A stretch of DNA of 64,000 bases from Alphaproteobacteria bacterium (GTDB lineage Bacteria; Pseudomonadota; Alphaproteobacteria; Rs-D84). The stretch lies in contig JAFXPG010000014.1 of assembly GCA_017528045.1 (NCBI GenBank), positions 68,414 through 132,413 on the forward strand, written 5' to 3'. The position numbers were made by a program, and so were the translations under genes. The notes beneath the pieces were generated by a model, which saw only the letters and a program-made list of their open reading frames with translations, had not been told where the DNA came from and made no database searches. Positions within the stretch are counted from its first letter, which is position 1. Each line of letters begins with the position of its first letter. Positions 4,375 to 64,000 of the stretch are shown here, in pieces.

Positions 4375-4409
4375 CTTTTATAATCCTTACCTTGCTTTCT
4401 TTTTTATCT

Positions 4410-8607: not shown

Positions 8608-8631
8608 TAAAAACTCACAAGGAGTATTAAA

Positions 8632-9000: not shown

Positions 9001-9166
9001 TTTTTACTTTAAGGAATCTAGGATTCCAAAAAAATTAAATTGCAGAAATGCAATTCCCGCCGCCCGCCAAGGAAAAATTTTTTCTGTGGCGGGCACACAG
9101 GCGTAAAAGGTGATAAACTTTTTTCGTTTGCAAAACACAGAAGAGAAAAATAAAAGGATTCAGAAA

Positions 9167-48304: not shown

Positions 48305-48335
48305 AAAAGCCACTTTCGGGTGGCTTTAATTTTTG
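48305..48335 (+). terminator. rho-independent terminator
   Basis: AAAGCCAC-TTTCGG-GTGGCTTT hairpin followed by AATTTTT. Confidence 0.75.
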
Positions 48336-48389
48336 GTTGAAAGATGTTTTATTTTAATAAACAATAGCATTAAAATAAAGGTTCATATT

Positions 48390-49223: not shown

Positions 49224-49252
49224 AACGCCCAAACGGGCGTTGTATTTTTTTT
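49224..49252. terminator. bidirectional terminator after lgt (copy A of a duplicated hairpin)
   Basis: A-rich run, ACGCCC-AAAC-GGGCGT hairpin, T8. Confidence 0.8.
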
Positions 49253-49404
49253 GTGGCGGATGGTGAGGGATTATCTCGGCACCTTGTGCCTGCGTTGCAA
49301 CCGTGACGATTTCACTGCATTAACATTTGTGAAATCTACTTGTTGTCGAACTCCAGCAACTGCGTTGCAGGGCCTAACCCCAAGCCACAATCACGATAAA
49401 AATA
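49253..49404. ncRNA. candidate structured RNA or relic of unknown class
   Basis: Conspicuously GC-rich 150 nt. Closing helix TTGTGGC / GCCACAA. Internal hairpins GGCAC-CTT-GTGCC and GATTTCAC-N13-GTGAAATC. No credible ORF. Class and strand undetermined. Confidence 0.3.
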
Positions 49405-49431
49405 AAATGCCCAAGCGGGCATTTAATTTTT
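49405..49431. terminator. bidirectional terminator (copy B of a duplicated hairpin)
   Basis: AAATGCCC-AAGC-GGGCATTT hairpin followed by AATTTTT. Differs from copy A mainly by a compensatory stem change. Confidence 0.75.
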
Positions 49432-49655
49432 ATGGCGGTGTTGTAATATTTGACGGTATTAGATATCCAATTTACAGGGTATTTACAGGGAATTTTTATG
49501 AAAAATACGTTATTTTACCGTAAATCATGCTACTGTAAGGCTTGTAACACGCCACTTTTATTCAAAATTCCCTATTCAAAAAGCAGGGAATTATTTTATA
49601 TTAACAGGGAATTTGCCACTATTATATTTGACTTTCTTTTTTAATTTGAAATATC

Positions 49656-50408
49656 ATGTTATTTATGCAAGCAGATACCAAAATGTTAGGAATTTGTAAA
49701 TTTTGTGGCGAAGAAAAACAATTGGTACAATCGCACATTATACCAAAGTGTTTACATGCAACAAACCAAGGTAGAATGGTTGGGATAAATGCAACCACAA
49801 AATTTGATATGAACCCTAATGCACAAAATGGTTATAAAGAACGTCTTTTATGTGCAGATTGTGATAACAAACTCGGTGTTTTTGATAATTATGCCAGAAA
49901 ATTCTTTTACGATATTATACCAAGTGCATCAACAGATATAAGCGATGGATTTAATATATATAATATTCAGTCCGATAAATTTGATTATGAAAAACTTTAT
50001 AAATTCTTTGTGTCTGTTTTATGGCGTTGTAGCATCTCTTCTAAAAGAGTCGATTTAAAAAAATATCAACAAATTGCGTTCGATATATTAACCGACAAAG
50101 CACCGATACAACCAGACTTATTTTTGCCAATAATTTGTAAAAAAGAAATAGAACACCCATCAAATTATGCAACCGGTATGTCCCCTGGACGATTTGCTGG
50201 AAAATATGCATATTGTTTGAAAATACCTGGTTATGAAATAACAATAGTTGTAAACACAAAAGATTCAAATGACCCAAAAAGTATCGATATGTATAAAACA
50301 TACTTTTGTAAAAATTGTATAAAGGTCATAAAAATGGACATGTTATCAACAGTTGATAAATTATTGTCACATAAAGTTGAACTTAATAAAAAACAATGCC
50401 AAATTTAA
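49656..50408 (+). CDS. HNH-type nuclease domain protein (second member of the family seen at 37129)
   Basis: ICKFCGEEKQLVQSHIIPKCLH...LLCADCDNKLG. The start is uncertain; alternative ATGs lie at 49665 and 49683. Confidence 0.5.
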   Translation: MLFMQADTKMLGICKFCGEEKQLVQSHIIPKCLHATNQGRMVGINATTKFDMNPNAQNGYKERLLCADCDNKLGVFDNYARKFFYDIIPSASTDISDGFNIYNIQSDKFDYEKLYKFFVSVLWRCSISSKRVDLKKYQQIAFDILTDKAPIQPDLFLPIICKKEIEHPSNYATGMSPGRFAGKYAYCLKIPGYEITIVVNTKDSNDPKSIDMYKTYFCKNCIKVIKMDMLSTVDKLLSHKVELNKKQCQI

Positions 50409-50605
50409 AATATTAACAAATAAAAAGTCCCGGATTCCTGGGACAAAAAATTAACTTTCCCAGATTTCTGCGGCAAATCCGTTTTCAACTGAAAAATTAG
50501 CAAATTTCCGCATATTATGTTTGAAAATAAAACGAATCCCGTTATTAATGAAAGTATAGGGAGAGAAAGGAGGCCCATAAATGTAAGGAACAAAGGAGGT
50601 GTACA

Positions 50606-51925
50606 ATGGGTACACTAGTATTTGAAAATGTAAAAATTGCGGATATTCATGGCTATGAACATAACGCAAAAATGCATCCTGAATCTCAGGTGCAACAGAT
50701 AATATCTTCTATAAACAAATTTGGGTTTAATAATCCAATATTAATTGATGAAAATAATGAAATCATTGCAGGTCATGGCCGTTTTTTAGCTGCTCAGGCA
50801 ATGAATCTGGAAACCGTTCCAACGATAAAGCTTTCGCATTTAACGGATGCGCAAAAACGCGCTTATAGATTGGCAGATAATAAGATTGCTGAAAACGGTG
50901 GCTGGAATAAAGAATTGCTAAGCCTTGAAATCAAAGATTTGGAAAAGATATGTTTGAACGATAATTTTGTAATCCAAGATATTGGATTTAATGATGCAGA
51001 ATTGGATTCTATCATTAACTTCACAGATGCCAAACCAATCAGTCAGAAAACCAATGCTGTGCCGTTTATACCAGAAGATGAAATCGTATCAAAGTCTGGT
51101 GATATATGGCAATTAGGTAAACATCGCATAATCTGTGGTGACAGTTTAAATCCAGACACATTTGTAAAATTGTTTGATGGTAAAAAGGCCGACATGATTC
51201 TGCAAGACCCACCATACAACGTCAAAATAGATGGTCATGTATGTGGTTCTGGCACTATTAAACACAAAGAATTTGCAATGGCATCTGGTGAAATGACTAT
51301 GGATGAATTCACAAAGTTTTTGATGAATAACTTCGCACTGTGTAAACAGTATTCCAACGATGGTTCTTTGCTTTACAACTTTATGGATTGGCGTCATATT
51401 TTGGAAATCACAACCGCTGGTAAGAATGTATTTGATAAATTCATCAATATGTGCGTGTGGGTAAAAACATCTGGTGGTATGGGCAGTTTATACAGGAGCC
51501 AACACGAACTGTGTTTTATATTCCAAAATGGCAAAGAATCACATAATAATAATGTCCAACTTGGCAAATATGGCCGGTATAGAACCAATGTATGGCAATA
51601 TGCTGGTGTAAATGCTTTTGGTAAACATAAACAAGATGGCATTATGCATCCAACGGTTAAGCCCGTAGAGATGTTAAAAGATGCGATATTGGATGTATCA
51701 AAACGTGGCGATATTGTGTTAGATTGTTTCCTTGGTTCAGGTAGCACTTTAGTTGCATGCCAACAATCTGGGCGCATTTGTTATGGCATAGAATACGAAC
51801 CGCTTTATATAGATACAACAATACGGCGCTTTCAGAATTTATTCGGCATAGATGCAGTAAATTTATCCACTGGTAAAACATACAATGAAATGTTGAAAGA
51901 ACACAAAGGGGGCAATAATGTCTGA
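50606..51925 (+). CDS. ParB-like nuclease domain fused to an N6-adenine/N4-cytosine DNA methyltransferase
   Basis: N-terminal ParB/Srx-like region (NPILIDENNEIIAGHGRFLAA). Methylase motif ILQDPPYN and C-terminal FLGSGST. Strong AAAGGAGG RBS. Confidence 0.85.
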   Translation: MGTLVFENVKIADIHGYEHNAKMHPESQVQQIISSINKFGFNNPILIDENNEIIAGHGRFLAAQAMNLETVPTIKLSHLTDAQKRAYRLADNKIAENGGWNKELLSLEIKDLEKICLNDNFVIQDIGFNDAELDSIINFTDAKPISQKTNAVPFIPEDEIVSKSGDIWQLGKHRIICGDSLNPDTFVKLFDGKKADMILQDPPYNVKIDGHVCGSGTIKHKEFAMASGEMTMDEFTKFLMNNFALCKQYSNDGSLLYNFMDWRHILEITTAGKNVFDKFINMCVWVKTSGGMGSLYRSQHELCFIFQNGKESHNNNVQLGKYGRYRTNVWQYAGVNAFGKHKQDGIMHPTVKPVEMLKDAILDVSKRGDIVLDCFLGSGSTLVACQQSGRICYGIEYEPLYIDTTIRRFQNLFGIDAVNLSTGKTYNEMLKEHKGGNNV

Positions 51926-52322
51926 TTATGAAATAGGATATGCTCGCCCACCAAAATCAACACGGTTTAAACCAGGTCAATCGGGCAACCCAAAGGGGCG
52001 TAAAAAGGGTTCTATGAATCTTGATACGATTTTGATGAAGGCTTTGGATGCAAAAATAACCGTTGAAACACCAGCCGGTACAAAGCGTATTACTAAAAAA
52101 GAAGCGATAGCTATGAGATTGGTAAACAAAGCGGCTATGGGCGATCCTAAATCAATACAAACACTGTTGCCTTGGATGTCTAAAGTAGAAGAACGCAACA
52201 AATTAATCGCGCAAAAGTTAGAAGATGTAACCGAACAAGATGATATGATAATAAAAGGTTTTATAGATGGTATCAGGACGAATAATGCCGCAACGTCAAC
52301 TGCAAGCAATATTGCGGAATAA
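51918..52322 (+). CDS. DUF5681-like protein (putative small terminase)
   Basis: RPPKSTRFKPGQSGNPKGRKKGS motif. Sits immediately upstream of, and overlaps, the large terminase. Confidence 0.6.
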   Translation: MSDYEIGYARPPKSTRFKPGQSGNPKGRKKGSMNLDTILMKALDAKITVETPAGTKRITKKEAIAMRLVNKAAMGDPKSIQTLLPWMSKVEERNKLIAQKLEDVTEQDDMIIKGFIDGIRTNNAATSTASNIAE

Positions 52323-53739
52323 CTTTAAAAGTTTTGTTATCAAGGTATTTCAAACAGTATCGAATGATACATACCTTGATAACTGGCATATAGACGTTGT
52401 GTGTAATGAAATAGAACAAATGATATCTGGTGAAAATACAAGATTGATTGTTAATTTGCCACCACGTAATATGAAATCCATTATTTGCTCTGTTGCATTA
52501 CCTGCGTATTTGTTGGGTAAAAATCCGCACGAACAGATAGTGTGTGTAAGTTATTCTGATGATTTGTCATCACAACTAGCAAACCAATTTAAAATGGTTA
52601 TAGAATCACAGTGGTATAAAGATTTATTCCCAGCGGTTATATTAAAAACACGTGGTTTGGATATGCTGCGCACAAGCGTTGGCGGTTATCGCTTTGCAAC
52701 ATCTATTTGTGGCCCATTAACAGGATTTGGTGGTAATTGGATAATAATTGATGATCCTTTAAAGGCTGGTGACGGTTTTTCTGATACGGTTCGTGAAAAA
52801 GTAAACGACTGGTATACAAATACTTTGTATTCACGATTGAATAATAAAAATACTGGTCGCATATTGGTTGTTATGCAACGTTTGCATGAAATGGATTTAA
52901 CAGGATATTTATTATCCAAATCACTTGGCTTCAAATAAATTCGCATACCAATTATTGCGGAAGAAAATGAAGATTGGTCTTTTACTGATAAATTCAATTG
53001 TGAACATCATATAAACAGACAAAAAAACGATTTATTGCATCCTGCACGTGAAAACTTTGATGCTGTCACCAGTATGCGTAATATGATGGGTGAATTTGCC
53101 TTTGCTGGTCAATACCAACAAAGGCCGGTGCCATTAGAGGGAGGTATTGTTAAACGTGGTTGGATACGTTATTATCAAAATTTACCAAGGATTTGGACTA
53201 TAGCTATTTCTTGGGATACAGCGGCAAAGGCTGGCTCAAAAAATGCGTATTCTGCATGTTCTGTACTTGGCATATGTGATGGTGACAAACCAGGTAAATA
53301 CAATAGAAAGATTGTGTTGTTGGAAGTTCACAGAATGAAATTGGAATTTCCACAATTGATGGAAAAAATAATTGAAATGTCCAATGAAATTCAAAACAAA
53401 TACCAGAAAATGTTCAATATGAAATTTATGCGTGTAGAAACAGTAATAGAAGACGCATCATCTGGGACACAGATTATACAATTTTTACATTCCAAGGGAA
53501 TACGCATAGAAGGAATCAAACCAGAAAACGATAAAGAAACCAGATTGATAGGAATTACACATCTTTTGGAAAATGGCACAGTATTATTACCAAACCAACA
53601 AGATGGTGAAACGGTGGACTTTTTCGATGAATTGTTTAAATTCCCGAATTCCACATTCAAAGATATGGTTGATTCATTCTCACAAGGTGTCAGATATATG
53701 GACGACAAATATGTTTCCGGATGTAAAGGGTATTTTTAA
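52285..53739 (+). pseudogene. phage terminase large subunit interrupted by a single in-frame TAA at 52936-52938
   Basis: Track ORFs 52267-52938 and 53035-53739 are in the same frame. The gap translates cleanly (IRIPIIAEENEDWSF...). Walker B-like WIIIDDPLK and LHEMDLTGYL are present. Confidence 0.75.
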
Positions 53740-53741
53740 CG

Positions 53742-54467
53742 TTAAAATGGATATTCGCCATTTGCCCATTTGCAAGGATTGAAGTCCGCTATACCAGTGA
53801 CATATTTATCACACTGATCATAAAAACCATAAGTAATTCTAATATATTCACTTGACGAAAGAGTTTGTTTGTTCTTTTCTACATATTCATAAACAGCATT
53901 ATCTGATGCAGGTGTGCCATTGAACACACACGCTAAACATTCACACATTTTTTGAATATAATTCTGGTTTAGTTGAACACGACCGTTTTGCATATTATAT
54001 TCACATCTATTAAAAAATTGATTTTTTAATTTTTTTCGTATTTCGGGATTTTGTTTTGCTATTTTTGTTATTTTTGCTGTTTCTTCCTTTTCTTTTTGTG
54101 CAGCAACTTTTTTCCTTTTATCTATTTGATATTCATCGAATACTTTTGTGTTAACAACATGTATTGTTTTGTCGACAGAAATCTTATTTCCAGCTTTATC
54201 TGCAAAATACGAACCACCGAATCTTCCGCGGTTATCAGTGTCAAAAAACTTTTTATTTATTACAGCATAATCCGTAAATTCAGCGAACTCGTCTTTTGAA
54301 TAAGAATTTGTTTTTTTCATAATATCATCAGAAACACAGAAATAATCACCCTTAGAGATATTATAATTTTTTAAGCTATTATCATTAATTTTTCCACACC
54401 TATATGGGAAAGGTTCACTGGCCACACACGCAGCTAATATAAGTAGAAATAATAATCTTTTTTTCAT
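53742..54467 (-). CDS. putative lipoprotein, unknown function
   Basis: Lipobox-like LILAAC within the signal peptide. Cys-rich. Confidence 0.5.
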   Translation of the reverse strand: MKKRLLFLLILAACVASEPFPYRCGKINDNSLKNYNISKGDYFCVSDDIMKKTNSYSKDEFAEFTDYAVINKKFFDTDNRGRFGGSYFADKAGNKISVDKTIHVVNTKVFDEYQIDKRKKVAAQKEKEETAKITKIAKQNPEIRKKLKNQFFNRCEYNMQNGRVQLNQNYIQKMCECLACVFNGTPASDNAVYEYVEKNKQTLSSSEYIRITYGFYDQCDKYVTGIADFNPCKWANGEYPF

Positions 54468-54553
54468 ATTTATTCTTTTTTTAGATATTCATAATCCATC
54501 TTTGGTGGTATTAATATGATGTTGTAAAGATCCCACAGGCATTTGGTTTCATG

Positions 54554-54730
54554 TTATGATTGTTTTGATGTCTTCTCAATTTTTTCTATTATTAAACCTG
54601 CACATAAAAATAAAGTTGCCATTATTCCCCATAAACACGCATATATTTGTCCTGTAATATATTGTGCACTGAAAAGACTGCTAAAGAATTCTATTCCGCA
54701 TATAACGCATAATATTGCACATATCCACAT
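54554..54730 (-). CDS. small two-TM membrane protein (58 aa)
   Basis: Hand-translated MWICAILCVICGIEFFSSLFSAQYITGQIYACLWGIMATLFLCAGLIIEKIEKTSKQS. AAGGAGAG RBS 6 nt upstream. Below the track cut-off. Confidence 0.45.
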   Translation of the reverse strand: MWICAILCVICGIEFFSSLFSAQYITGQIYACLWGIMATLFLCAGLIIEKIEKTSKQS

Positions 54731-54751
54731 TTTTCTCTCCTTTTATTTTTT

Positions 54752-54974
54752 AACAAAAAGTTAACCGCCAAAGAAATTGGCGGCCGGGGAGTTCTCAAAT
54801 CATTTGTTCGTTGATTCCGTGGCTTTCGGTTTTTACCTGTTTTATAACCAACAGCTCCCCGACCATAAGTCAGGGATGATAACGGTGCAAAAGACACCGA
54901 TAACATCAGATTACGATGCTTCCGCACCGGAACAAATAGGCTTGAGATAGCCCCGAACCCAATCCCTTGGATTC
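54752..54974 (-). ncRNA. structured GC-rich leader or sRNA with its own promoter and an intrinsic terminator; class unknown
   Basis: Minus-strand promoter: TTGATT (55009-55004), 17-nt spacer, TATTAT (54986-54981). Multi-hairpin fold: GGGAT...ATCCC closes three hairpins, plus a long-range CGGGGAG...CTCCCCG helix. Terminator CCGCCAA-AGAAA-TTGGCGG (54765-54783) followed by a T-run on the minus strand. Confidence 0.45.
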
Positions 54975-55013
54975 ACTAGAATAATACATTAAAATATGAT
55001 AATAATCAAGTTA

Positions 55014-55241
55014 TTAAGGTTTTTGGGATAGTTGCTTTTTCCATAAAGCCGCCATTTGTAACAATTTATAATTAATACGTTTAATAAGCCATGCTTGGCG
55101 ACAAGTTAAATTGCCATCATTGGTCCTGCGGATTGCGGCTTCTAATTCCCGCAAAGAACGGCATGCAGCAAAGTAGAGCATAATAAAATCTGTTTTGTTA
55201 CTGGGCTTGATATCATCAAAATGCTTATACTTCATAGACAA
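55014..55241 (-). CDS. hypothetical protein (75 aa)
   Basis: ORF only. No family recognised. Confidence 0.35.
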   Translation of the reverse strand: MSMKYKHFDDIKPSNKTDFIMLYFAACRSLRELEAAIRRTNDGNLTCRQAWLIKRINYKLLQMAALWKKQLSQKP

Positions 55242-55347
55242 TCCTTTTTAAGATTGTCGTATTGATGATTATATTCCCGCGAAAGTCCAGTTATTTTATT
55301 TATTTTTTGAGTAAATCTCAGCAATTAATAATCATTGTTAAAAATAC

Positions 55348-55376
55348 TTGACAAACATATTCTTTTTGTCTAATAT
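55348..55376 (+). promoter_or_regulatory. sigma70-like promoter of the radical SAM / aaRS-like operon
   Basis: TTGACA (55348-55353), 17-nt spacer, TAATAT (55371-55376). The inverted repeat GACAAA-N10-TTTGTC lies within the spacer. Confidence 0.55.
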
Positions 55377-55400
55377 GTAGTTATTAGAATTAGGATTGTA

Positions 55401-56606
55401 ATGAAAGAAACCAAACCTAAAAGTCTTTTTTTGTGGCCAAGAGAAATGTTCGCGCCACCAAGTTTATTTAAGCACTATGTATATTTGGGTGAGATGGCTG
55501 GGGTCGCCAAAAAATACTCTGATGTTGATATTATAGACCTAAGCTTGCAGAATATATCCAGGCAAGAATTCGTATCCAGGTTATCAGATAGAGATTTTGT
55601 GTTTATACCGGTTGAAGTATACACTGCTAGGTCAATTGTAAATTTGGTAGAATACGTAAGGAATCAAACAAAAGCAAAGATTATTGGGTATAGTACGGCT
55701 TGCGCTTTAAATCCTGGATTATTTACCAATTATTTTGATTATGTTGTTGCATCTGGTTTTAGGGGAAACGCAATAAAAGCTATATTACAGGGCGATTTTT
55801 CGGATTTTTCAATTGATGGCAACATCATAAAAACAAAGCAAAAACCGTCTAATATCGAATGGGGCATTGCACCATTAAATCAAATGCCTGTGCAAGAATA
55901 TTTAAAGATTTCAAACAATGAAGTGGAATTGAGTGTACAAATGGGATGCAAAGCGAACTGTGCCTTTTGCATGGAAAAAATATTTCATCCGGCAAGTTTT
56001 GTAGAGTATCGTCCAATACCAGAGATTGTTAAGTTTTTTGAAACAAATATTTATGACAGGTATTTTTTAGATGCTACCACTTTTACTATAGATAAAAAAT
56101 GGGTGTTAAATTTATGCGATGCTATCAGGACAGCAAGTGTACCCAATATACCCAAGTGGCGTACTGTTACTCGTGTAGACTGTTTAGATGAAGAATTATG
56201 TACAGCCATGTCTTCTGCTGGATGCTACCAAATTGGCCTTGGCATAGAATCATTATCGCCAAATGTTCAAAAAAATGTTCATAAAGTTATCCAAGAACAA
56301 AAGATTATTCAAGTGTTTGATATGTTGAAACGCAATAATATTCAACCTCGCGGTTTCTTTATTTTGGGTCTGCCTGGTCAAGCAAAAGAAGATGTTGATT
56401 ACTGTTTGTCTTTCATAAAAGATAATAATATTCCATGTCGTTGGAAGGAATACTTGCCTCTTCATAACGTAAAAACGTTTAATGATATTGCGCAACTTAA
56501 ACCGTTTGAAAAAGATTCTTTCTTTTTCCACCCAGTGGCAAACATGTCCAAAGAAGACTATTTGAAAGTATTATTGAAAGATACCAGGTATACAAGGAGC
56601 AAATAA
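55401..56606 (+). CDS. radical SAM enzyme with an N-terminal B12-binding-like domain (class B-like)
   Basis: Roughly 170-aa Rossmann-like N-domain followed by SVQMGCKANCAFCMEK (CxxxCxxC). Confidence 0.75.
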   Translation: MKETKPKSLFLWPREMFAPPSLFKHYVYLGEMAGVAKKYSDVDIIDLSLQNISRQEFVSRLSDRDFVFIPVEVYTARSIVNLVEYVRNQTKAKIIGYSTACALNPGLFTNYFDYVVASGFRGNAIKAILQGDFSDFSIDGNIIKTKQKPSNIEWGIAPLNQMPVQEYLKISNNEVELSVQMGCKANCAFCMEKIFHPASFVEYRPIPEIVKFFETNIYDRYFLDATTFTIDKKWVLNLCDAIRTASVPNIPKWRTVTRVDCLDEELCTAMSSAGCYQIGLGIESLSPNVQKNVHKVIQEQKIIQVFDMLKRNNIQPRGFFILGLPGQAKEDVDYCLSFIKDNNIPCRWKEYLPLHNVKTFNDIAQLKPFEKDSFFFHPVANMSKEDYLKVLLKDTRYTRSK

Positions 56607-56607
56607 A

Positions 56608-57678
56608 ATGATTGGCCGTGTTTTAGAAACAAAAAAAATGAAAACATTTATTTTTATCAAAGTTGGCAATGCCAATGAGGTTGTGTGTGGTCAAATAGAT
56701 AAAAGTTTAGAACCAAGGCCCCATACCAGTGATATTGTTAAATTTGATATAGAAAATGATCCAGATGAAATATTGCCACATTTTGTAAACATGGATGTGT
56801 TAGAAAGATGCAATGCGCCTGAGATTGTTAACCCAGATATGATACAAATATCATTATATAAAAGTAAATTTGAACAAATTGCTGATGCACATTTCTCTAA
56901 AATAGGCGCAATAAAAGTTCATACACCAACATTAGGTAGATACAAAGGGACTTCGAATATAGATCCTTATGAAACCCAGAATAAAAAAGGTAAAACATTA
57001 TATTTAAAATTTACACACGATTTGTTATTACGCTCGGTTTTGGCAGATGTATTAGTACCTGTATATGAAATAGGAAATGTTTTCAGAAATATGGGGATTT
57101 CGTATAAATATGCCACAGAATACACAATGTTGGAATCTCATATACCGTGCCAGGATCTACAGTATGGTATAAATTTGGCACAAACAATTTTGCAAGATTT
57201 TGCGCATTCAATTGGAAAAAATGATTTTGATAATCTGCCTGTTAAAACATTACAACAATCTTTTTCTGAATTTGGTAAAGATCTTGCCAATATGCCTGAT
57301 TCAGAACAAGTTGATTTTTATAAAGACAAAATTAAACCGTCTGGCACCTTTATTTCCGTTTATCAACCAGCAATTGCGAGTCCATTGGCTAAAATAGATC
57401 CAAAAACCAACTTGGGACTTGATGCAGAGATAATATATAACGGTAAAGGGATTGCACATATATATGTTTGTGAAAATAATTATGATAAACTGCTAAAAAT
57501 CTTCAAAAATCAAGACAAGACTCAACAAAGATGGGATAAGGATTTTTTATTAAAAGCCAAAGCTGGCATTCCTTCAACTGTCGGTGTTGCAATAGGATTG
57601 GACAGAACTATAGCCGGATTATTTGGGGTTACCGTCAATGATTTAGTTATGAGAGGCAAATTATCAAATGAACGATGA
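56608..57678 (+). CDS. class IIb aminoacyl-tRNA synthetase paralogue (LysRS/EpmA-like), divergent
   Basis: Short OB-like N-domain (GRVLETKKMKTFIFIKVGNANEVVCGQI). Motif 1 (KVHTPTL), motif 2 (VYEIGNVFRNMGISYKYATEYTMLESH), SPLAK, motif 3 (GVAIGLDRTIAGLFG). Starts 1 nt after the upstream stop. Confidence 0.8.
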   Translation: MIGRVLETKKMKTFIFIKVGNANEVVCGQIDKSLEPRPHTSDIVKFDIENDPDEILPHFVNMDVLERCNAPEIVNPDMIQISLYKSKFEQIADAHFSKIGAIKVHTPTLGRYKGTSNIDPYETQNKKGKTLYLKFTHDLLLRSVLADVLVPVYEIGNVFRNMGISYKYATEYTMLESHIPCQDLQYGINLAQTILQDFAHSIGKNDFDNLPVKTLQQSFSEFGKDLANMPDSEQVDFYKDKIKPSGTFISVYQPAIASPLAKIDPKTNLGLDAEIIYNGKGIAHIYVCENNYDKLLKIFKNQDKTQQRWDKDFLLKAKAGIPSTVGVAIGLDRTIAGLFGVTVNDLVMRGKLSNER

Positions 57679-58753
57679 AATCAAAACGATAGAATTTTTA
57701 AAAACTGGCTTATCGTTGCAGACTCATATTGGCTGTCCAATAAAGTGTTCTTATTGTGTTGTTACTGGTTTTTATGATGATATGGTCAAAACCCAACAAC
57801 TCGTAGATACGGATACACTGATAAATAACTTAATAAAACATGAATTTTTTAATGACGATGTTATCTTGATGGTGAACAATAAAACAGAAGGTTTTCAACC
57901 AAAGGTTGAAAAATATACTTTTGATATTTTGGATAAACTTAAGAATTATGGAATAAAAAATCCAAAAGTATTGATAACGAAACTTCCGATACCGCTAAGA
58001 TATACAGAATCTTTGACTGATAATAATGTTTTTGTGTTTACAACATATTCTGGCATGCCCGCGTCTATAGAACCAACATCAAACCCAACAAATTTGTCTA
58101 ATATTATAAACAATATCAAAACATTAAGACAGCATTCTGATGTAAGACATGTACATTATTGGCGTCCTATTGTTAGAAATATAAACAGCAGTTCTGATAT
58201 TATTGATAACATATTAGGAAATGTAAACGATGTATTTGATTGTTCTGTTGTATCTGGTATCCGTTTAACACCGGTTATTAAACAGCACCTAGAAAGCCGA
58301 GGGGCAGATTTTTATGATTGGAATGGTGATATTAATCATAAATTTTTACCAGACGATATTTATGATCAAATTATACAATCAAGGAACAAATTATGTCCTG
58401 AATATAAGTTGTTTACAAAGACCAGTTGTTCTATCAGTCATTTATTGGATAGTTTTGATGCGAATTTGAATTTTGTAAAAAGAAATTATAAGTGCTCTGT
58501 TCAATGTCCAAATGGGTCAATATGTAAATCGTACCAGCCACAATATACAGAGAAAGAACGCGAAATATTAAAAAAGTTCGATTTATTGGATTATGCACAT
58601 TTTACAGATGGGGTTTTATACATAAATAAGCCGATTTCCCAAGAATTAAAAGCATTTCTTACTCAAACAATAAAATTAAGAATAATTGTTCCAGAAACAC
58701 TAAAATCTTATACCGAAGGTATTTTCAATGCACGAAATGGGCGTTCTTTGTGA
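57668..58753 (+). CDS. radical SAM enzyme (second, different type)
   Basis: LQTHIGCPIKCSYCVV CxxxCxxC near the N-terminus and a C-terminal Cys cluster (CSVQCPNGSICKS). Overlaps the upstream gene by 11 nt. Confidence 0.7.
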   Translation: MNDEIKTIEFLKTGLSLQTHIGCPIKCSYCVVTGFYDDMVKTQQLVDTDTLINNLIKHEFFNDDVILMVNNKTEGFQPKVEKYTFDILDKLKNYGIKNPKVLITKLPIPLRYTESLTDNNVFVFTTYSGMPASIEPTSNPTNLSNIINNIKTLRQHSDVRHVHYWRPIVRNINSSSDIIDNILGNVNDVFDCSVVSGIRLTPVIKQHLESRGADFYDWNGDINHKFLPDDIYDQIIQSRNKLCPEYKLFTKTSCSISHLLDSFDANLNFVKRNYKCSVQCPNGSICKSYQPQYTEKEREILKKFDLLDYAHFTDGVLYINKPISQELKAFLTQTIKLRIIVPETLKSYTEGIFNARNGRSL

Positions 58754-59258
58754 TTTTCATGGTACTTTGGTAGATGCTAATCATGCATGGATCAAAGCTT
58801 TTGAAACTTATGATATTCCTGATATAAATCAGGTGATTACAGATGTGTATCATAAAGTAAATCGAAAAATAATATGTAATAAGTATGGTATAAATTATGA
58901 AGAAATAAAAAATAAATACATATATTTTTTGGAGGTTCGTTATGAAATAGTTAATCTTGTTAAATTATTAAGTGGCAATACAGGAATAATAATAGTTTCG
59001 AATTCTAGCAGAGAACGTTTGCTCAGGGACATAGATTTTGTAAAACCAAATTTAGATTTGAATATACTGGAAATATTATCCAAAGAAAACGGCAACAAAA
59101 ACGATCCAGATTATATAAATCAGGTGCTAGACAGATATAATTACAGGTCTGCATATTTAGTAGGAAATGACATCAGAGAAGACTTCAACCCATCATTGCG
59201 TATAACAAATATATTTGTCCCATATAAAAATACTATACTTATGAATAAAACCCTATAA
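58728..59258 (+). CDS. HAD-superfamily protein with an atypical motif I (DFHGT)
   Basis: VLCDFHGTLVD, IIIVSNSS, and LVGNDIREDF. Overlaps the upstream gene by 26 nt. Confidence 0.55.
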   Translation: MHEMGVLCDFHGTLVDANHAWIKAFETYDIPDINQVITDVYHKVNRKIICNKYGINYEEIKNKYIYFLEVRYEIVNLVKLLSGNTGIIIVSNSSRERLLRDIDFVKPNLDLNILEILSKENGNKNDPDYINQVLDRYNYRSAYLVGNDIREDFNPSLRITNIFVPYKNTILMNKTL

Positions 59259-60215
59259 AGATATTTTTATCATATTTTTTTCTGTATCAATATATGCTTT
59301 GCCACCGATAGGAAACACAAAGTACGGCATTGTATGCCCAAAATCTAACCCTGTTATAACTGGTATTTGTCCTAATTTAACATGATTATTAAAAAACTCG
59401 CGCAGTCCATCAACAGAAAAATCAGAATTGTTTCTAAATCTGCCCAGCACTATACCTTTCACCTTATCAAAATCTGGCTGTTGCGACAATGAAACAAAAT
59501 TTCGCTTAAATAAATCAATACTCATACCATCGTCTTCTAAAAATAATATTTTGTTTGCTAATCCAGGCATATATGGTGTTCCGAACAACAATGGTAATGT
59601 TCCTATGTTTCCGCCGCCAATTTCACCTTCTGCCTGTCCTGGGTACAACACAACACGTCCAGGATTTTGCATAAAATGCCTATCATCTTGATTTTTGTGC
59701 CATTTATCATCACTCCATTCGTGAGAATCTATAATATCGAATTCACGTCTTTTGTTTTTTACAATATTCATAAAGGCTTGTTCTATATAATCAAACCCTT
59801 GTTGCATAGCAAAATGGCTAAAACAAGGGCCGTATAAATTAATCAATTCTGATTTCTTGAGCAGAGCATTCTGCAATGCAGTTATGTCAGAAAATCCGCA
59901 AAATATTTTCTTATTGTTTTTTATTAAATCATAATCAATATACGGCAATAATTCGTTGGAATTTGCGCCACCAAATGCCGCCATAACCAAATCAATATCC
60001 GGATCTTGAAAAGCATCATGTAAATCTTTGACTCTACTTTGTACACTTGAAGAACCAAACATATCTCGTTCAAAAGCATGTTGCCCGAAAGACACCTTAA
60101 AACCCAATGCTTTCAATCTTGTTTCTGCTAATTCTCTATTGGATTCTGCCAAGTTAGCTAAACTTGCAGCTGGTGCAATTACACGTATATTTACTATGCC
60201 TTTGTTAAAAATCAT
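59253..60215 (-). CDS. S66 peptidase (LD-carboxypeptidase / MccF-like)
   Basis: GFSDITAL nucleophile motif, LFLEDDG, and FGHTMP. Convergent with the HAD gene, with overlapping stops. Confidence 0.8.
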   Translation of the reverse strand: MIFNKGIVNIRVIAPAASLANLAESNRELAETRLKALGFKVSFGQHAFERDMFGSSSVQSRVKDLHDAFQDPDIDLVMAAFGGANSNELLPYIDYDLIKNNKKIFCGFSDITALQNALLKKSELINLYGPCFSHFAMQQGFDYIEQAFMNIVKNKRREFDIIDSHEWSDDKWHKNQDDRHFMQNPGRVVLYPGQAEGEIGGGNIGTLPLLFGTPYMPGLANKILFLEDDGMSIDLFKRNFVSLSQQPDFDKVKGIVLGRFRNNSDFSVDGLREFFNNHVKLGQIPVITGLDFGHTMPYFVFPIGGKAYIDTEKNMIKISL

Positions 60216-60343
60216 AACTTACATCCTTTATCAGTCTAAATATATGTATTGTATACCAAATAAAAACCAATTTTTCAACTTATTTTAACTTGACTTCTGG
60301 CTACTTTAGAGCGGTAATTGGACGATGTTATAAAGGAGTCGAT

Positions 60344-60769
60344 ATGTCTTATAAAGACAACCTGCCAAAGACGATAGATGAGCTAAAAGCCTTGTCTTTT
60401 GATGAACGGGCACGATTGTGGGCAAAATACTCACAATACCCATTTAAACGGCAAATGCGGTCGCTTTGGTATTACATTCAATGTGACCGCCTAAACCTGC
60501 GAATTGAGCATAAATATCTTGTACAAATCCGCAAATACAAAGATGATCCAGAAAAATGCTTAACCAGTGTCCAAAAAAATAAATATAACTTTGTTCCTGG
60601 CACCATTTTAACACGATATTTCAAGGGCATAAAATACACTATCTTAGTCAATGATGATGGCAGTTTTTCATATAACGGTGACAAATATTCAACATTGTCG
60701 GGGGTAGCAACTAAGATCGCTGGTATGAAACTATCCGGACCAAAATTTTTTAATCTAGCCACAAAATGA
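60344..60769 (+). CDS. DUF2924-like protein (recombinase-associated)
   Basis: PGTILTRYFKGIKYTILVNDDGSFSYNGDKYSTLSGVATKIAGMKLSGPKFFNL. AAGGAG RBS. Start placed at MSYKD. Confidence 0.6.
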   Translation: MSYKDNLPKTIDELKALSFDERARLWAKYSQYPFKRQMRSLWYYIQCDRLNLRIEHKYLVQIRKYKDDPEKCLTSVQKNKYNFVPGTILTRYFKGIKYTILVNDDGSFSYNGDKYSTLSGVATKIAGMKLSGPKFFNLATK

Positions 60770-61454
60770 CATTTTTGATGTATGGTATTAATTCTTCCAT
60801 AAGACTTGATTGTTTGAATTCTACACCCGTATGGCTTTCTGCATTATTACCGCTACCGTCATCATAAATTTCTACAGTTGTAGAGGTATGAACTTTTATA
60901 AAGTAAAGCCCAGTGCGTAGTAATGCGTATCGTATAGTATTTATATCTGCAGGAATTTTTAGTTGTTTTATAAAATTTTCTCTGTCTTCTCGCCATAATT
61001 TGTGATTTTCACACTCGTATATCTCTGTAACGCCATTTTTAACAACCACTGATGTTTCATCAGAATGTTTAGGTTGAGGGTTTAAAATGGGCCAGAGATC
61101 ATAAGCGATAACTTTTATTTCTTCTTCTGTTAATCCTTCTAAAATTTGAGCAAATTTTAAAAAGTTTTGAGCAGTTAATTTATTATTGTTATGCAAACCT
61201 GCGATCATGGCACATAGTAGGCGTAAATTATTTTTAGCAATTCCTTCCATAGCATCTTTCTGCAATCTGTAACTTATCCCCACTAAATCATCACTATCAA
61301 CATTAGAAAAATCTCCTTGTCTTATTTCTGATAAAATAATCTCCCTTAACATTGTTATTTTCTTCTTTTTATACTTATTCCAAAAAAATTCAACTCCCCT
61401 TGCTAAAGGATTATTTGTAAGTTTATCTATTGTGCTTAGAAAGTTCATAATCAC
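60750..61454 (-). CDS. hypothetical protein (234 aa)
   Basis: ORF divergent from the recombinase gene. No family recognised. Confidence 0.45.
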   Translation of the reverse strand: MIMNFLSTIDKLTNNPLARGVEFFWNKYKKKKITMLREIILSEIRQGDFSNVDSDDLVGISYRLQKDAMEGIAKNNLRLLCAMIAGLHNNNKLTAQNFLKFAQILEGLTEEEIKVIAYDLWPILNPQPKHSDETSVVVKNGVTEIYECENHKLWREDRENFIKQLKIPADINTIRYALLRTGLYFIKVHTSTTVEIYDDGSGNNAESHTGVEFKQSSLMEELIPYIKNVILWLD

Positions 61455-61557
61455 TCCTTTTGTATCAAATATACGTTTTTTTACGCTTTTTTCAATCTAA
61501 TTAACTTGACTAATCACTTAATACAAGCACTAATTGCAAGCAATATAGGAGTTAAAC

Positions 61558-63186
61558 ATGACAATTAAATGCGCTATTTATACCCGTAAATCAACCGAGC
61601 ACGGTCTTGAACAAGAATTTAATTCTTTGCAAAACCAAGAAGAGTCGTGCAAGGCATATATAGCTTCACAATCGTTTAATGGTTGGCAATATTATAAGAC
61701 ATACAGTGATGCGGCGATTTCTGGTGGGACTATGGAACGGCCTGCATTAAAACAAATGTTGGATGATATGGCACATGGGTTAGTAAATACTGTGGTAGTG
61801 TATAAGGTTGATCGATTATCGCGTTCAATCTTGGATTTCCACAATATGATGAAATATTTTGAAAAATACGGTGCAAATTTCGTGTCTATTACCCAGTCAT
61901 TTGATACCAGTACATCTATGGGTAAATTGACATTGAATATGCTGTTATCATTCGCACAGTTCGAACGTGAAGTATCAAGTGAACGTGTGCGTGATAAAAT
62001 CCGTGCATCAAAAGCCAAAGGCCTATGGATGGGCGGTGCACCACGTTTGGGTTATGACCTGATAAACAAAAAATTGGTAGTAAACCCAACCGAAGCAGAA
62101 CAAGTGCGACATCTGTTTGAGAAATACCTAGAACTGCAATCTGTAAACGATTTAACTGAATACGCACGGCAAAATGGTATATATGGTAAACGCTGGAAAA
62201 CCAATAAACGAAAAATACGTGGTGGCAATCCTATTGCTAAAATGAGTATGCATCGCATTCTGCGGGATAAAGTTTACATAGGTCAAATTGAAAATAAAAA
62301 AGAAGGCACTTTTGCCAAAGGTGAACACGAACCGATTATTTCTACAGAACTATTTAATCGTGTCCAAATTGCGCTGGCTAATAATGCGAATAATAAATCA
62401 CCAAGCACACATGCACCAAATATACTGACAGGTAAATTATTTAATCACAATGGCACAAAGTTTATCAACCAACGCACAAGTGGCAAAGGCAAAAAGACAA
62501 CATATTACTATGCGACGAAAGGATTCTATCTGACCGCAGCACGCGTTGATGAAATAGTGATAAAAACAATAACCAATTTTCTGAACAGTGACATGTCAAA
62601 TTTGCCCATAAACCTGGCAACTATATTAAAACGAATTGATGTTACAAACATGAATTTCGCAGATAAACGCAATTTGATTCAATCATTGGTTGAAAAACTT
62701 GTGTATTCGCAGGAACAGCTGATTTATACAATTACGACCAACGGCACAAAACTGCAACAATTTGTATCTGAAAATTATATGAATCCAAACACAGACAAAA
62801 TGGAATACATAATTGGTGATAACAGCATAACAATCACAGAGAAAGTATTCCTTCGTAAATATGTGAATACAGTATATGACCGTGGTAAAAATGGTGTACT
62901 AAACGTCATTGACAATAACCATCTGATTCTGAAAGCCTTCGCCACCGCATGGAAATATAGGGAACTATATGAACAAGACGACAATGTAGATAAGGTTATA
63001 CGTGCCGTCCGCACATCGTCAAGATTGTTTTATAAATATTTGGCACTGGCATATCTTAACCCACAAATAGTAAATAAACTGTTAAGTGGAAAATCCAAGA
63101 TATCAGTTAGAGACATTTTAGACAAAGCATCTAATGAACACGATTTAATAAAACAAATAAAAATATTTAGTGCCCAAGTACTTTGA
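61558..63186 (+). CDS. large serine recombinase
   Basis: AIYTRKSTEHGLEQEFNSLQNQ, VVVYKVDRLSRS, FAQFEREVSSERVRDK, and a recombinase domain GGAPRLGYD. 542 aa. Confidence 0.9.
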   Translation: MTIKCAIYTRKSTEHGLEQEFNSLQNQEESCKAYIASQSFNGWQYYKTYSDAAISGGTMERPALKQMLDDMAHGLVNTVVVYKVDRLSRSILDFHNMMKYFEKYGANFVSITQSFDTSTSMGKLTLNMLLSFAQFEREVSSERVRDKIRASKAKGLWMGGAPRLGYDLINKKLVVNPTEAEQVRHLFEKYLELQSVNDLTEYARQNGIYGKRWKTNKRKIRGGNPIAKMSMHRILRDKVYIGQIENKKEGTFAKGEHEPIISTELFNRVQIALANNANNKSPSTHAPNILTGKLFNHNGTKFINQRTSGKGKKTTYYYATKGFYLTAARVDEIVIKTITNFLNSDMSNLPINLATILKRIDVTNMNFADKRNLIQSLVEKLVYSQEQLIYTITTNGTKLQQFVSENYMNPNTDKMEYIIGDNSITITEKVFLRKYVNTVYDRGKNGVLNVIDNNHLILKAFATAWKYRELYEQDDNVDKVIRAVRTSSRLFYKYLALAYLNPQIVNKLLSGKSKISVRDILDKASNEHDLIKQIKIFSAQVL

Positions 63187-63982
63187 GTAATGGTTCATTT
63201 TTTGCAAATTTTATATATTCGTTTTTCAATTTTATAAAAAACCAATCTCGTATAGCTGCATTTTTAAATTCGTATTGTAATCTAGAAAAAACGGCTGTTT
63301 CATTAAACGTTTCATCATTGATTAAATATTTCCAAATAGTTGATACATGTGCTTTAGCAGTAATCTTTAATATTCTTTTTTTAGGATATAATGACGTTGC
63401 ATAATCATATAATACCAAGCATATTGCTATAAGTCGTTTTATAATCATGGTTTCTTGTTCTTCTTCTCTATCTAATCGTTCAGTATAAAATTTATATCCG
63501 TATTTATGTGAGTAATTGTCTCTAGAATCTCTATATCTTTTTGCCCAATATAAATCATTCTTTAATCTGTTTAAATCGTAACTAACTTCTGGTAAATCAA
63601 CAATAATTTTATTGGCAATTCTCAATATCTCTTCAATATTAGTATCATCTTTAAAAACAAAAATCTGTCTTTCTCCAAATGTTTTTTCAGTTTCTTTCTT
63701 ATATTCAATAACTTCATTAAGATTATCTTTTTGATTTTCTATGCATTGAAATAAGTTTGCCAATAATATGTTTAAATCTTTTATTTGTTCCTCATCTTTT
63801 GTTTTTTTATTGTCTTTAAGTTTATCTTTTCTTTCTTGATAATAGAGATAGAAGGTGCCAAACATAGAAATATAAGCAGGAATTGTTGCAGCAAGTACGG
63901 TTTCCCATTGACTCGGTTTTAATAGGTCTATTAACAGCGCCATATCTGTAACTGGTATATTCATTGTTAGATCTAACGACAT
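63167..63982 (-). CDS. hypothetical protein (271 aa) with one N-terminal TM
   Basis: ORF convergent with the recombinase gene and overlapping its 3' end by 20 nt. No family recognised. Confidence 0.4.
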   Translation of the reverse strand: MSLDLTMNIPVTDMALLIDLLKPSQWETVLAATIPAYISMFGTFYLYYQERKDKLKDNKKTKDEEQIKDLNILLANLFQCIENQKDNLNEVIEYKKETEKTFGERQIFVFKDDTNIEEILRIANKIIVDLPEVSYDLNRLKNDLYWAKRYRDSRDNYSHKYGYKFYTERLDREEEQETMIIKRLIAICLVLYDYATSLYPKKRILKITAKAHVSTIWKYLINDETFNETAVFSRLQYEFKNAAIRDWFFIKLKNEYIKFAKNEPLLKVLGH

Positions 63983-64000
63983 TTTGTTTCCTTTTATTTT

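Follow-up and report, generated by a model that had tools for sequence, protein, structure and literature searches.

A rare, mobile gene cassette with two radical SAM-type proteins, a lysyl-tRNA synthetase-like protein and interchangeable peptidases

A cassette of five genes occupies positions 55348–60215 of a 64,000-nucleotide stretch (the window) of contig JAFXPG010000014.1 (positions 68,414 to 132,413 of the forward strand; GenBank assembly GCA_017528045.1, Alphaproteobacteria bacterium). Four plus-strand genes encode a radical S-adenosylmethionine (SAM) protein (rSAM1), a shortened relative of lysyl-tRNA synthetase (LysRS) designated mini-LysRS, a second predicted radical SAM protein (ORF3) and an atypical HAD protein; a convergent gene encodes an S66 peptidase. 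The cassette belongs to a rare, recurrent and horizontally mobile gene cluster family with a constant core of ORF3, a HAD protein bearing a DxH motif (DxH-HAD) and a radical SAM protein resembling AprD4 and B12-domain enzymes, to which a SAM methyltransferase is often added. We give a probability of about one half to the following reading: the end product of the cassette, or an obligatory intermediate, would be a toxic conjugate in which a lysyl (aminoacyl) group is joined to a phosphorylated and probably nucleotide-like small molecule; it would mimic lysyl-adenylate and block class II LysRS, and the cassette would carry its own antidote. For the broader view, in which an aminoacylation step is at the heart of a self-protecting cluster for a specialised metabolite, the figure is about two-thirds, which is the sum of that probability and the share given below to an amino-acid or dipeptide product. 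A preliminary description of this DNA, made from the letters alone, knew of no pathway combining these genes, and no description of the combination was found in the literature.

Recurrence and gene content of the cassette

The evidence comprises the genes present and their synteny, co-variation and purifying selection, together with folds and altered motifs. Loci were gathered via homologues of mini-LysRS, ORF3 and rSAM1, and all of them were scanned with profiles made from the cassette proteins. Dereplication at 80% ORF3 identity left 32 cassette types. The HAD gene was present in 27 of the 32, rSAM1 in 26, a Methyltransf_23-type methyltransferase in 18, mini-LysRS in 17, an S51 peptidase in eight, a class I LysRS in seven, an S66 peptidase in five, a class II LysRS in three and an alanyl-tRNA synthetase (AlaRS) in two. 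Wherever the contig allowed, a DxH-HAD gene adjoined every ORF3 of the cassette clade. The hosts were Alphaproteobacteria (loci L006–L008, L017, L023 and L029), Firmicutes/Tenericutes (L032–L036) and one Nanoarchaeota metagenome-assembled genome (MAG; L025). Two versions come from assemblies of named Firmicutes strains: L036 from Lachnoclostridium sp. An131 (contig NZ_NFLI01000022, at about 36–43 kb) and L033 from Lachnospiraceae bacterium P6A3. Mini-LysRS itself was rare, with 10 clusters among 5.8 billion proteins. When the window was compared with three related Enterousia-type loci, dN/dS was 0.04–0.12 for all five genes; the cassette is under strong purifying selection and is therefore functional cargo and not debris.

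Gene order varied between the types (aaRS denotes mini-LysRS, as an aminoacyl-tRNA synthetase-like protein; MT, the methyltransferase; LysRS1 and LysRS2, class I and class II LysRS). A Rickettsiales MAG (L017) had rSAM1-aaRS-S66-ORF3-HAD on a single strand, next to radA and mfd at a locus free of phage genes. The order was S66-MT-rSAM1-aaRS-ORF3-HAD in Alphaproteobacteria L029 and L041, and MT-S51-rSAM1-aaRS-ORF3-HAD in the Nanoarchaeota MAG. In L009, beside an integrase and Bro-N, rSAM1-aaRS-HAD-ORF3 was followed by convergent MT, AlaRS and S51 genes, and a prophage beside tail genes and a restriction/SNF2 island carried LysRS2-rSAM1-aaRS-S66-ORF3-HAD (L040). Bacilli/Tenericutes (L034, L035) had aaRS-rSAM1-ORF3-HAD-MT-S51-LysRS1; Lachnoclostridium sp. 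An131 (L036) had LysRS1-rSAM1-ORF3-HAD-MT-aaRS-S51-like, followed by an AI-2E transporter gene. Genes that had so far been seen together at one place, and might never have been syntenic elsewhere, are thus syntenic across recurrent types.

The core (ORF3, HAD, rSAM1 and methyltransferase) occurred without an aaRS-like gene in four loci (L033, L057, L064 and L039), and the aaRS step is therefore an add-on. In L033 the methyltransferase was fused to His_Phos_1 and accompanied by a second HAD and an AAA_18 kinase-like gene. At the exact position of mini-LysRS, L039 encoded a 322-aa P-loop protein (8461–9429; also in L037 and L038), followed by a second, ordinary HAD. This protein was a homologue of the FomB family of phosphonate-monophosphate kinases (143 bits, E 8e-42; under the 400-bit cut-off), and a PDB sequence search with it gave no useful match.

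S66 genes were co-directional inside the operon in L017, L023 and L040 and stood at its head in L029 and L041; S51 peptidases took the place of S66 in L009, L015, L025 and L034–L036. Peptidase and mini-LysRS occurred together in 12 types, mini-LysRS alone in five (all contig-limited), a peptidase alone in one and neither in 14 (Fisher exact p = 3e-4), a statistic much of which rests on short contigs that inflate the double-negative cell. Among well-flanked types only, a peptidase was found in 5/5 with mini-LysRS and in 0/2 without it. The peptidase is S66 in some types and one of at least two kinds of S51 in others, and the S66 proteins of different variants are only 38–42% identical, which looks like repeated recruitment of an analogous function. 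We conclude that the peptidase is linked to the cassette by function, not by chance.

Complete aminoacyl-tRNA synthetases were embedded as well. The class I LysRS of the Firmicutes types was bona fide (396 bits; cut-off 147.55). It occurred together with mini-LysRS in L032, L034, L035, L036, L063 and L072, and also in L061, whose contig ends before the position of mini-LysRS in L032 and L036; it was not found in L033, L057 and L064, which are Firmicutes types without mini-LysRS. Full-length class II LysRS was embedded in L040 and L032, and AlaRS in L009–L011 (882 bits; cut-off 529), the L009 copy keeping its editing domain. Genes for GNAT enzymes flanked L019 and L041. A class I LysRS next to L019 was considered as cassette cargo and rejected: it is of the ordinary alphaproteobacterial type, with >593 stretches matched, and close relatives carry it without the cassette.

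Published systems use the same repertoire. Yagmurov et al. (PMC9239234) showed that processed microcin C is cleaved at its aminoacyl-nucleotide bond by S51 peptidases (MccG); MccF (S66), MccE2 (GNAT) and MccH provide other routes of immunity, and mobile mcc clusters lose immunity genes and recruit them anew (PMC9239234). Extra synthetase copies (AbmK, AgnB2, asnS) give self-immunity in clusters for synthetase inhibitors (PMC8323819). That S66, S51, GNAT and embedded synthetase genes recur here is the strongest argument for a toxic aminoacyl conjugate formed at the mini-LysRS step, which would most simply be an aminoacyl-nucleotide mimic. The three forms of LysRS, namely the remodelled paralogue and the class I and class II copies, point to lysine and to LysRS as the target. 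An antimetabolite of the aminoacyl-nucleotide kind with built-in immunity was the first of three suggestions in the preliminary description. It is favoured by S66 inside operons, the exchange for S51, the co-variation of peptidase and mini-LysRS, and the embedded LysRS and AlaRS genes; we narrow it to lysine and LysRS, and the product is a prediction.

Some observations concern single types. A protein of about 420 aa, which may be an alternative tailoring enzyme or ligase, followed ORF3 or HAD in L018 (1667–2932), L051 (3477–4733) and L048 (1026–2300). The L018 copy (421 aa) had no Pfam, NCBIfam or PDB match, and the L051 copy no Pfam match. Directly upstream of mini-LysRS, L034 encoded a 485-aa RelA/SpoT homologue (4023–5480; HD_4, RelA_SpoT and TGS, lacking the usual C-terminal part), and L035 had an open reading frame (ORF) of equal size at the same position (4083–5540); the gene may be a cluster member or a housekeeping gene. 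The cassette of a Candidatus Enterousia MAG (L028; JAZQGC010000038, 7469–10587) was degraded, with rSAM1 gone and mini-LysRS cut to its last ~137 residues; its ORF3, HAD and S66 genes were intact, with dN/dS of about 0.05–0.06.

Properties of the cassette proteins

Profile searches (Pfam and NCBIfam) confirmed a radical SAM protein, a class II synthetase of the D/K/N type and an S66 peptidase among the five window proteins. Mini-LysRS matched PF00152 with 80.6 bits. In its AlphaFold2 (AF2) model, residues 1–66 formed a five-strand OB fold, followed by a class IIb catalytic core, and an L019 homologue matched PF01336. Class II LysRS was the better PDB sequence match (3e-15, vs 4e-7 for EpmA-type proteins), and all of the top 50 Foldseek hits were full-length LysRS, aligned over both domains (E 2e-22). 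Canonical class II LysRS models failed (TIGR00499, 82.5 bits vs a cut-off of 427.6; 356 aa vs about 500), and so did the EpmA models (NF006828, 73.9 bits vs 264; TIGR00462, 63.1 vs 286.9). The paralogue of subclass IIb proposed earlier is therefore upheld as LysRS-derived, and it is a two-domain protein, not an EpmA-like bare catalytic core.

The arginines of motif 2 (R160) and motif 3 (R333) were invariant. Motif 2 read FRNMG in Proteobacteria and VRDRY or TRDVY in Firmicutes, so that Arg was kept and Glu lost; the Mg-binding Glu of the 'GxE' motif was replaced by Gly in all members, and an invariant His (His284) stood in place of N424. Acidic residues were kept at the substrate positions corresponding to LysU E240 and E278. 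In LysRS structures the lost motif 2 Glu contacts adenine N6 and the other lost Glu bridges Mg2+. Mini-LysRS derives from LysRS: it retains the OB domain, both motif arginines and the acidic residues where substrate is bound. The loss of the two glutamates and the gain of the invariant His fit binding of an altered nucleotide or an altered reaction; the protein probably takes a nucleotide-like ligand and an amino acid whose side chain is basic, without running canonical adenylation unchanged.

Mini-LysRS might instead aminoacylate a macromolecule, which could be tRNA-Lys or, by analogy with EpmA acting on elongation factor P, a protein; the HAD, methyltransferase and radical SAM enzymes would then elaborate this modification, and the cassette would be a mobile translation-modification module. 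In EpmA and EpmB a LysRS paralogue and a radical SAM enzyme already act as partners, the anticodon-binding-like OB domain is kept, and the bona fide LysRS of some clusters could supply Lys-tRNA. Against this stand the failure of the EpmA models, the occurrence of the core without an aaRS-like gene, and the lack of efp, epmB, a carrier protein or a dedicated tRNA in the 32 cassette loci scanned; co-variation with hydrolases of the MccF and MccG types would also be left unexplained. We regard such a module as improbable. Its version as an EpmA/EpmB-like system for elongation factor P, suggested in the preliminary description, is disfavoured by the kept OB domain and the structural matches to LysRS, and no true EpmA next to efp was found. 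A reading as code expansion or as a system with a dedicated tRNA was dropped because an ARAGORN scan of the window and of 32 related loci detected no tRNA gene within or next to the cassette.

As a side observation on this gene, the mini-LysRS allele of L012/L013 appeared swapped relative to the window (55401–58215): it was 63% identical, vs 93% for rSAM1 and 91% for ORF3, with dN of 0.28 vs 0.03–0.04 for these flanking genes. This suggests recombination or diversification focused on the mini-LysRS gene. A jumbo-phage contig of 441 kb from IMG/VR (L026, 9590–11065) encoded a LysRS-like protein of ~490 aa, 23–25% identical to mini-LysRS; it scored 400 bits against a LysS profile built here and had no cassette partners nearby.

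The S66 protein of the window had the two-domain fold of its family (PF02016, 115 bits; PF17676, 92 bits). Its catalytic triad S109/E227/H294 aligned with the GxSD, ED and GHT/CHT motifs of Lmo1638, BA_5613 and Bacillus anthracis MccF. By alignment only, Trp172 corresponded to the second of the two Trp in the loop 'WSDESINW' of B. anthracis MccF, and its spacing to the catalytic Ser matched that of E. coli MccF W186. W186 stacks on adenine, and LdcA cannot protect (PMC8323819). The best PDB matches were Lmo1638 and BA_5613 (about 1e-92), followed by MccF (1e-42) and LdcA-type structures (1e-16 to 1e-24). An identification as LdcA was rejected, the equivalog model NF008424 giving 113.5 bits vs 378 and the LdcA structures matching more weakly than MccF. 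The protein thus lies on the MccF side of the family, as had been suspected, and we propose it by analogy as the predicted self-immunity hydrolase.

It could also be an unrelated neighbour, such as a murein-recycling LdcA, that shares no function with the four plus-strand genes. The gene does lie on the opposite strand, and its dS relative to its relatives was 1.0–2.2, compared with 0.1–1.0 for the operon genes. The failed LdcA model argues otherwise, as do the synteny kept in four Enterousia-type lineages (including the degraded L028) and the presence of S66 within the operon in five other types and of S51 in its place in eight; a chance neighbour is very hard to reconcile with this pattern.

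rSAM1 matched PF04055 with 46.9 bits and had the cluster motif C183-x3-C187-x2-C190. Its N-terminal domain is of the B12-binding-domain class and putative as to the use of cobalamin. Weak NCBIfam matches, all far under cut-off, were obtained to ApyD, HpnJ, AprD4, PhpK and ladderane-type B12-radical SAM families, whose models aligned across the N-terminal domain, and further weak matches to Sden_1168 P-methyltransferases (with PhpK) and ArsL. PF02310 gave no match in rSAM1 orthologues; more distant relatives did match. The best solved relative was AprD4 (6fd2, 9e-11), an enzyme of the apramycin pathway whose NCBIfam family is annotated as radical SAM diol-dehydratase. AprD4 has a B12-like domain and is not known to use cobalamin. 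Of the 'B12-type radical SAM' label given to rSAM1 earlier, the radical SAM part thus holds, and the B12 part is unproven.

ORF3 had no Pfam match and no useful PDB sequence match. It carried a cluster motif C23-x3-C27-x2-C30, whose three cysteines are each conserved at a level of 90% or more when the family is aligned, and further conserved cysteines C254, C280 and C286. Its AF2 model (pLDDT 76) retrieved only radical SAM structures with Foldseek: PFL-AE, SkfB, SPL, RlmN and viperin, at TM of about 0.45–0.49 and none close, the probability being 1.0 for the first four. The cysteine motif and the predicted fold agree with the second radical SAM enzyme proposed earlier, here below the level of Pfam detection. 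On this model ORF3 is an unclassified radical SAM enzyme, and it serves as the marker gene of the cassette family. The wider family comprised 600 representatives at E <= 1e-3.

The HAD protein scored just under the cut-offs (HAD_2, 23.5 bits vs 23.8; TIGR01549, 22.2 vs 23.3), and a PDB sequence search with it gave no useful match. A profile of its family retrieved only HAD-IA structures (E 7e-4 to 0.07). All four HAD motifs were recognised, D9-x-H11-x-T13, S91, K124 and G146-N147-D148...E151-D152, invariant across 13 homologues. Motif I is an invariant DxH in place of DxD (Asp+2 to His), which bears out the atypical character ascribed to this protein.

Some distant ORF3 homologues (P0074, P0079, P0136, P0058 and P0091) were fused to TIR, to nucleoside 2-deoxyribosyltransferase-like or to TCAD9 and APH kinase domains, and may be nucleotide-centred conflict proteins. 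These fusions, the prophage-like or integrative settings of the window, L009 and L040, and the aaRS allele swap in L012 (where flanking identity is 91–93%) could be read as marks of anti-phage defence by a viperin-like modified nucleotide, or of phage anti-defence or nucleic-acid hypermodification. None of the cassette partners adjoined the outer-family ORF3 loci recovered (mostly metagenome contigs), and a defence role is for this reason not carried over to the cassette. PADLOC matched only rSAM1, unconvincingly, to PDC-M51A at E 2e-5, and none of the other four proteins; PHROGs gave nothing informative for the operon proteins. The cassette clade was not found in 50,697 phage genomes (ORF3 query) or 72,556 plasmids (mini-LysRS query), and in 2.9 million IMG/VR contigs a mini-LysRS alignment retrieved only the jumbo-phage LysRS-like gene and an ORF3 alignment only outer-family homologues. 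The L017 locus without phage genes and the two named Firmicutes strain assemblies also speak against a phage-related role, and a bypass LysRS would rescue phage translation along with that of the host. Defence is about as improbable, in our estimate, as macromolecule modification, and the phage hypermodification or anti-defence module of the preliminary description finds little to recommend it.

Proposed product and comparison with known systems

In the pathway that we propose for a lysyl conjugate, we infer by analogy the substrate, product, target and direction of every reaction. rSAM1 and ORF3, and in most relatives the SAM methyltransferase, would remodel a nucleotide or a sugar-phosphate-like precursor, and DxH-HAD would remove or transfer a phosphoryl group. 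Mini-LysRS would join lysine to this scaffold, either directly through its remodelled nucleotide pocket or from Lys-tRNA in the manner of AcmF. The convergent S66 peptidase would hydrolyse the aminoacyl bond of conjugate accumulating in the producer and confer self-immunity like that by MccF and MccG. No additional protection would be needed where the host has a native class I LysRS, and the class I LysRS present in Firmicutes clusters would act as a bypass. The phosphoryl chemistry that recurs around the core, in the form of HAD, the kinase and phosphatase genes of L033 and the FomB homologue of L039, is counted in favour of this pathway.

Several points weigh against it. Every functional link is by analogy, and Lmo1638 and BA_5613, the closest solved relatives of the S66 protein, are to our knowledge uncharacterised. 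The S66 proteins of the variants have diverged far from one another, as said above, and those of the L017 type lack the Trp loop. Short contigs lie behind much of the co-variation statistic. The L019 class I LysRS had to be discounted since it is of the ordinary type and occurs without the cassette. In L009–L011, AlaRS is accompanied by no matching change at the pocket positions of mini-LysRS, so a simple rule that the extra synthetase is the target fails for some variants. A native class I LysRS is expected in Alphaproteobacteria and Archaea; for Enterousia this is an expectation and a weak point, and no LysRS gene lay within the 64-kb window. The cassette loci examined held no conserved exporter, only L036 having an adjoining AI-2E-family transporter, and no gene for an obvious non-hydrolysable linkage, ThiF/MccB-like or sulfamate-pathway genes included. 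Finally, S51 and S66 peptidases also cleave ordinary peptides, so that a product of the lysyl-dipeptide or non-canonical amino-acid kind is a serious rival.

Under that rival, the cassette would make a non-proteinogenic amino acid, which would be a lysine analogue or an amino-acid analogue of the phosphonate or phosphinate type; mini-LysRS would attach lysine to it, or attach it to a different amino acid, to form a Trojan-horse or self-protected dipeptide. S66 and S51 would cleave the dipeptide, and extra LysRS or AlaRS would prevent misincorporation of the analogue into proteins of the producer. The weak matches of rSAM1 to PhpK, Sden_1168 P-methyltransferases and ArsL, the FomB-family homologue replacing mini-LysRS in L039 and the kept editing domain of the L009 AlaRS are consistent with it, and antimetabolites that are amino acids are likewise detoxified by GNAT enzymes. 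S51 has an Asp-X dipeptidase as its type member (PMC9239234), and synthetase and tRNA-editing genes mark clusters for non-canonical amino acids (2026 study, PMC13149037). Conversely, no phosphoenolpyruvate (PEP) mutase, aminotransferase or amino-acid-pathway gene was found in the variants whose neighbours were examined, and the kinase and phosphatase partners together with HAD point to a phosphorylated sugar or nucleotide. S66, S51 and GNAT are documented together only for aminoacyl-nucleotides (PMC9239234), and Trp172 of the window S66 aligned with the adenine-stacking Trp. An amino-acid or dipeptide product is unlikely on balance, if less so than defence or macromolecule modification.

The lysyl conjugate would be of a known kind in concept, a toxic aminoacyl-nucleotide with self-immunity; the biosynthetic machinery is new, and the cluster belongs to none of the families of synthetase inhibitors compared (mcc, abm, acm). 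The microcin C clusters share with it the same non-homologous hydrolase and acetylase families (MccF S66, MccG S51, MccE2 GNAT), attached interchangeably; both are found on mobile elements, and some mcc clusters have an extra synthetase gene. As in mcc, the predicted toxic species is an aminoacyl-nucleotide mimic that blocks a class IIb synthetase. Unlike mcc, the cassette lacks an MccA precursor, a ThiF-like MccB and an MccC exporter, and its product is therefore not a peptide made on the ribosome and modified after translation (RiPP). The five window proteins gave no ThiF/MccB-type match in Pfam or NCBIfam, and no ThiF-like family was found in the cassette loci examined. The aminoacyl moiety would be lysine, with LysRS as the target, vs aspartate and AspRS for mcc, and the scaffold would be built by two radical SAM proteins, HAD and a methyltransferase.

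In the ascamycin pathway, AcmF transfers alanine from Ala-tRNA to sulfamoyl-adenosine, and hydrolytic removal of the aminoacyl group controls activity. AcmF is an AlaRS-like protein, a truncated or remodelled relative of class II synthetases, that installs the amino acid on a nucleoside analogue from aminoacyl-tRNA (PMC12945691). The likeness to the AcmD/AcmF system lies in such a remodelled enzyme within a pathway to an aminoacyl-nucleoside sulfamate. The enzyme of the cassette, by contrast, is LysRS-derived, sulfamate and halogenation genes are missing, and in place of Streptomyces the hosts are anaerobes of the gut together with their mobile elements.

For albomycin, the radical SAM enzymes AbmJ and AbmM and the methyltransferase AbmI remodel a nucleoside, which is then aminoacylated as an aminoacyl-adenylate mimic. 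A second synthetase copy (AbmK, a SerRS) gives self-resistance in the pathway to the warhead SB-217452 (PMC8323819; PMC12691670). The logic of two radical SAM enzymes, a methyltransferase and a synthetase is the same, but in the searches run ORF3 and rSAM1 showed no detectable homology to named Abm families; the cassette also has no siderophore carrier and is far smaller (4–8 genes).

EpmA (PoxA/GenX) with EpmB likewise pairs a LysRS-derived paralogue with a radical SAM enzyme. EpmA lacks an OB domain and keeps a canonical motif 2, whereas mini-LysRS has OB, a remodelled motif 2 and a linkage to MccF- and MccG-type hydrolases, with no efp or epmB neighbour. In the fosfomycin and oxetanocin pathways, Fom3 or OxsB acts as a class-B radical SAM enzyme on a nucleotide-tethered substrate, and FomA and FomB are kinases. 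A radical SAM protein of B12-domain type, a phosphohydrolase and, in one variant, a FomB-family homologue recall these systems, but PEP mutase and the HD-domain OxsA are missing, and the similarity of rSAM1 is weak and far under cut-offs.

More tentatively, and well short of even odds, the product may be the first natural lysyl-adenylate mimic, from a non-ribosomal radical SAM pathway ending in mini-LysRS. It would be a mobile weapon that exploits the split between LysRS classes and poisons organisms dependent on class II LysRS; class I hosts (Alphaproteobacteria, Archaea) would be intrinsically immune, and Firmicutes carriers would have to co-acquire a class I LysRS and an MccF- or MccG-type hydrolase. 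As part of the same tentative proposal, such a cluster would be a new biosynthetic class of synthetase-inhibitor products, with machinery unrelated to that for microcin C, albomycin, agrocin or ascamycin. If the lysyl conjugate is real, gut bacteria would hold, on prophages and islands, a new enzymatic route to translation inhibitors of the aminoacyl-nucleotide type. Class II LysRS, against which the product is probably directed, has already been validated as a drug target, and the solved LysRS structures recovered with mini-LysRS were mostly inhibitor complexes from Plasmodium, Cryptosporidium and mycobacteria. The self-resistance rule of an extra synthetase plus MccF, MccG or GNAT would then reach beyond RiPPs, natural resistance would give the two unrelated LysRS classes an ecological role, and the ORF3-type radical SAM family (about 600 representatives) and the DxH-HAD family would be tied to an assayable pathway. 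The occurrence of the cassette in the assemblies of Lachnoclostridium sp. An131 and Lachnospiraceae bacterium P6A3 makes the idea directly testable.

Operon layout and island context

The features of the locus are listed in the table. The five ORFs lie as first described: the junctions calculated from their coordinates are a 1-nt gap, an 11-nt overlap and a 26-nt overlap between the plus-strand genes; the stop regions of ORF4 and the convergent ORF5 overlap by 6 nt. The candidate promoter noticed earlier is present and was the top-scoring promoter-like site of the region. It ends 24 nt before the rSAM1 ATG, which is preceded by AGGA 9 nt upstream. The region is AT-rich and shows no excess of such sites, with 40 observed vs 35 +/- 6.6 in shuffles. 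Despite diverged flanks, a TTGACA / ~17 nt / TATTAT pair occupied the same position in L007, L008 and L012; because of this positional conservation and its place before AGGA and ATG, we take the site as a plausible promoter. Rfam gave no RNA family near the cassette (whole window at the gathering score; 54400–55420 at E <= 1).

Table. Coordinates of the cassette and of neighbouring features in the window
Feature	Position	Strand	Remark
ParB-N6/N4 DNA methylase, DUF5681 protein, large terminase	50606-53739	+	island context
Large terminase	52285-53739		broken by a single TAA at 52936-52938
Two-helix membrane ORF	54554-54730	-	58 aa
Terminator-like hairpin	54785-54763		ends the RNA fold
Stable RNA fold	54745-54995	-	250 nt, richer in G+C
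Candidate promoter TTGACA-17-TAATAT	55348-55376	+	sigma-70-like; upstream of the four-gene operon; 10/12 positions matched
rSAM1	55401-56606	+	401 aa
mini-LysRS (ORF2)	56608-57678	+	356 aa
ORF3	57668-58753	+	361 aa
HAD-like ORF4	58728-59258	+	176 aa
S66 peptidase ORF5	59253-60215	-	320 aa
DUF2924 gene (+), 234-aa ORF (-), large serine recombinase (+, 61558-63186)	60290-63186		island integration module

The window was 99.98% identical to a gut-metagenome contig (L001), and its nearest genomes were Candidatus Enterousia MAGs (Alphaproteobacteria). Judged from its gene content, the cassette sits on an integrative, decayed prophage-like island of a gut alphaproteobacterium; no structural phage genes were found on the integrative element of the window. 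In L001 the interrupted terminase codon reads Gln and the gene is intact, and the nonsense codon appears to be a very recent inactivation of a prophage packaging gene. In L001 and L006 the serine recombinase is followed by a tRNA-Ser(tga) gene, a likely attachment site.

The RNA fold upstream of the cassette had a minimum free energy of -92.4 kcal/mol (z = -6.95; 0/200 shuffles as stable), and the hairpin that ends it lies just upstream of the small membrane ORF. It had no Rfam match and probably lies outside the cassette, because it was found in same-strain contigs only and not in other cassette loci. The island adjoins lgt both in the window (48325–64000) and in L006, where the segment with the cassette and the recombinase is inverted relative to lgt. 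The ParB-methylase gene is divergent from the cassette in L006, L007, L008 and L012.

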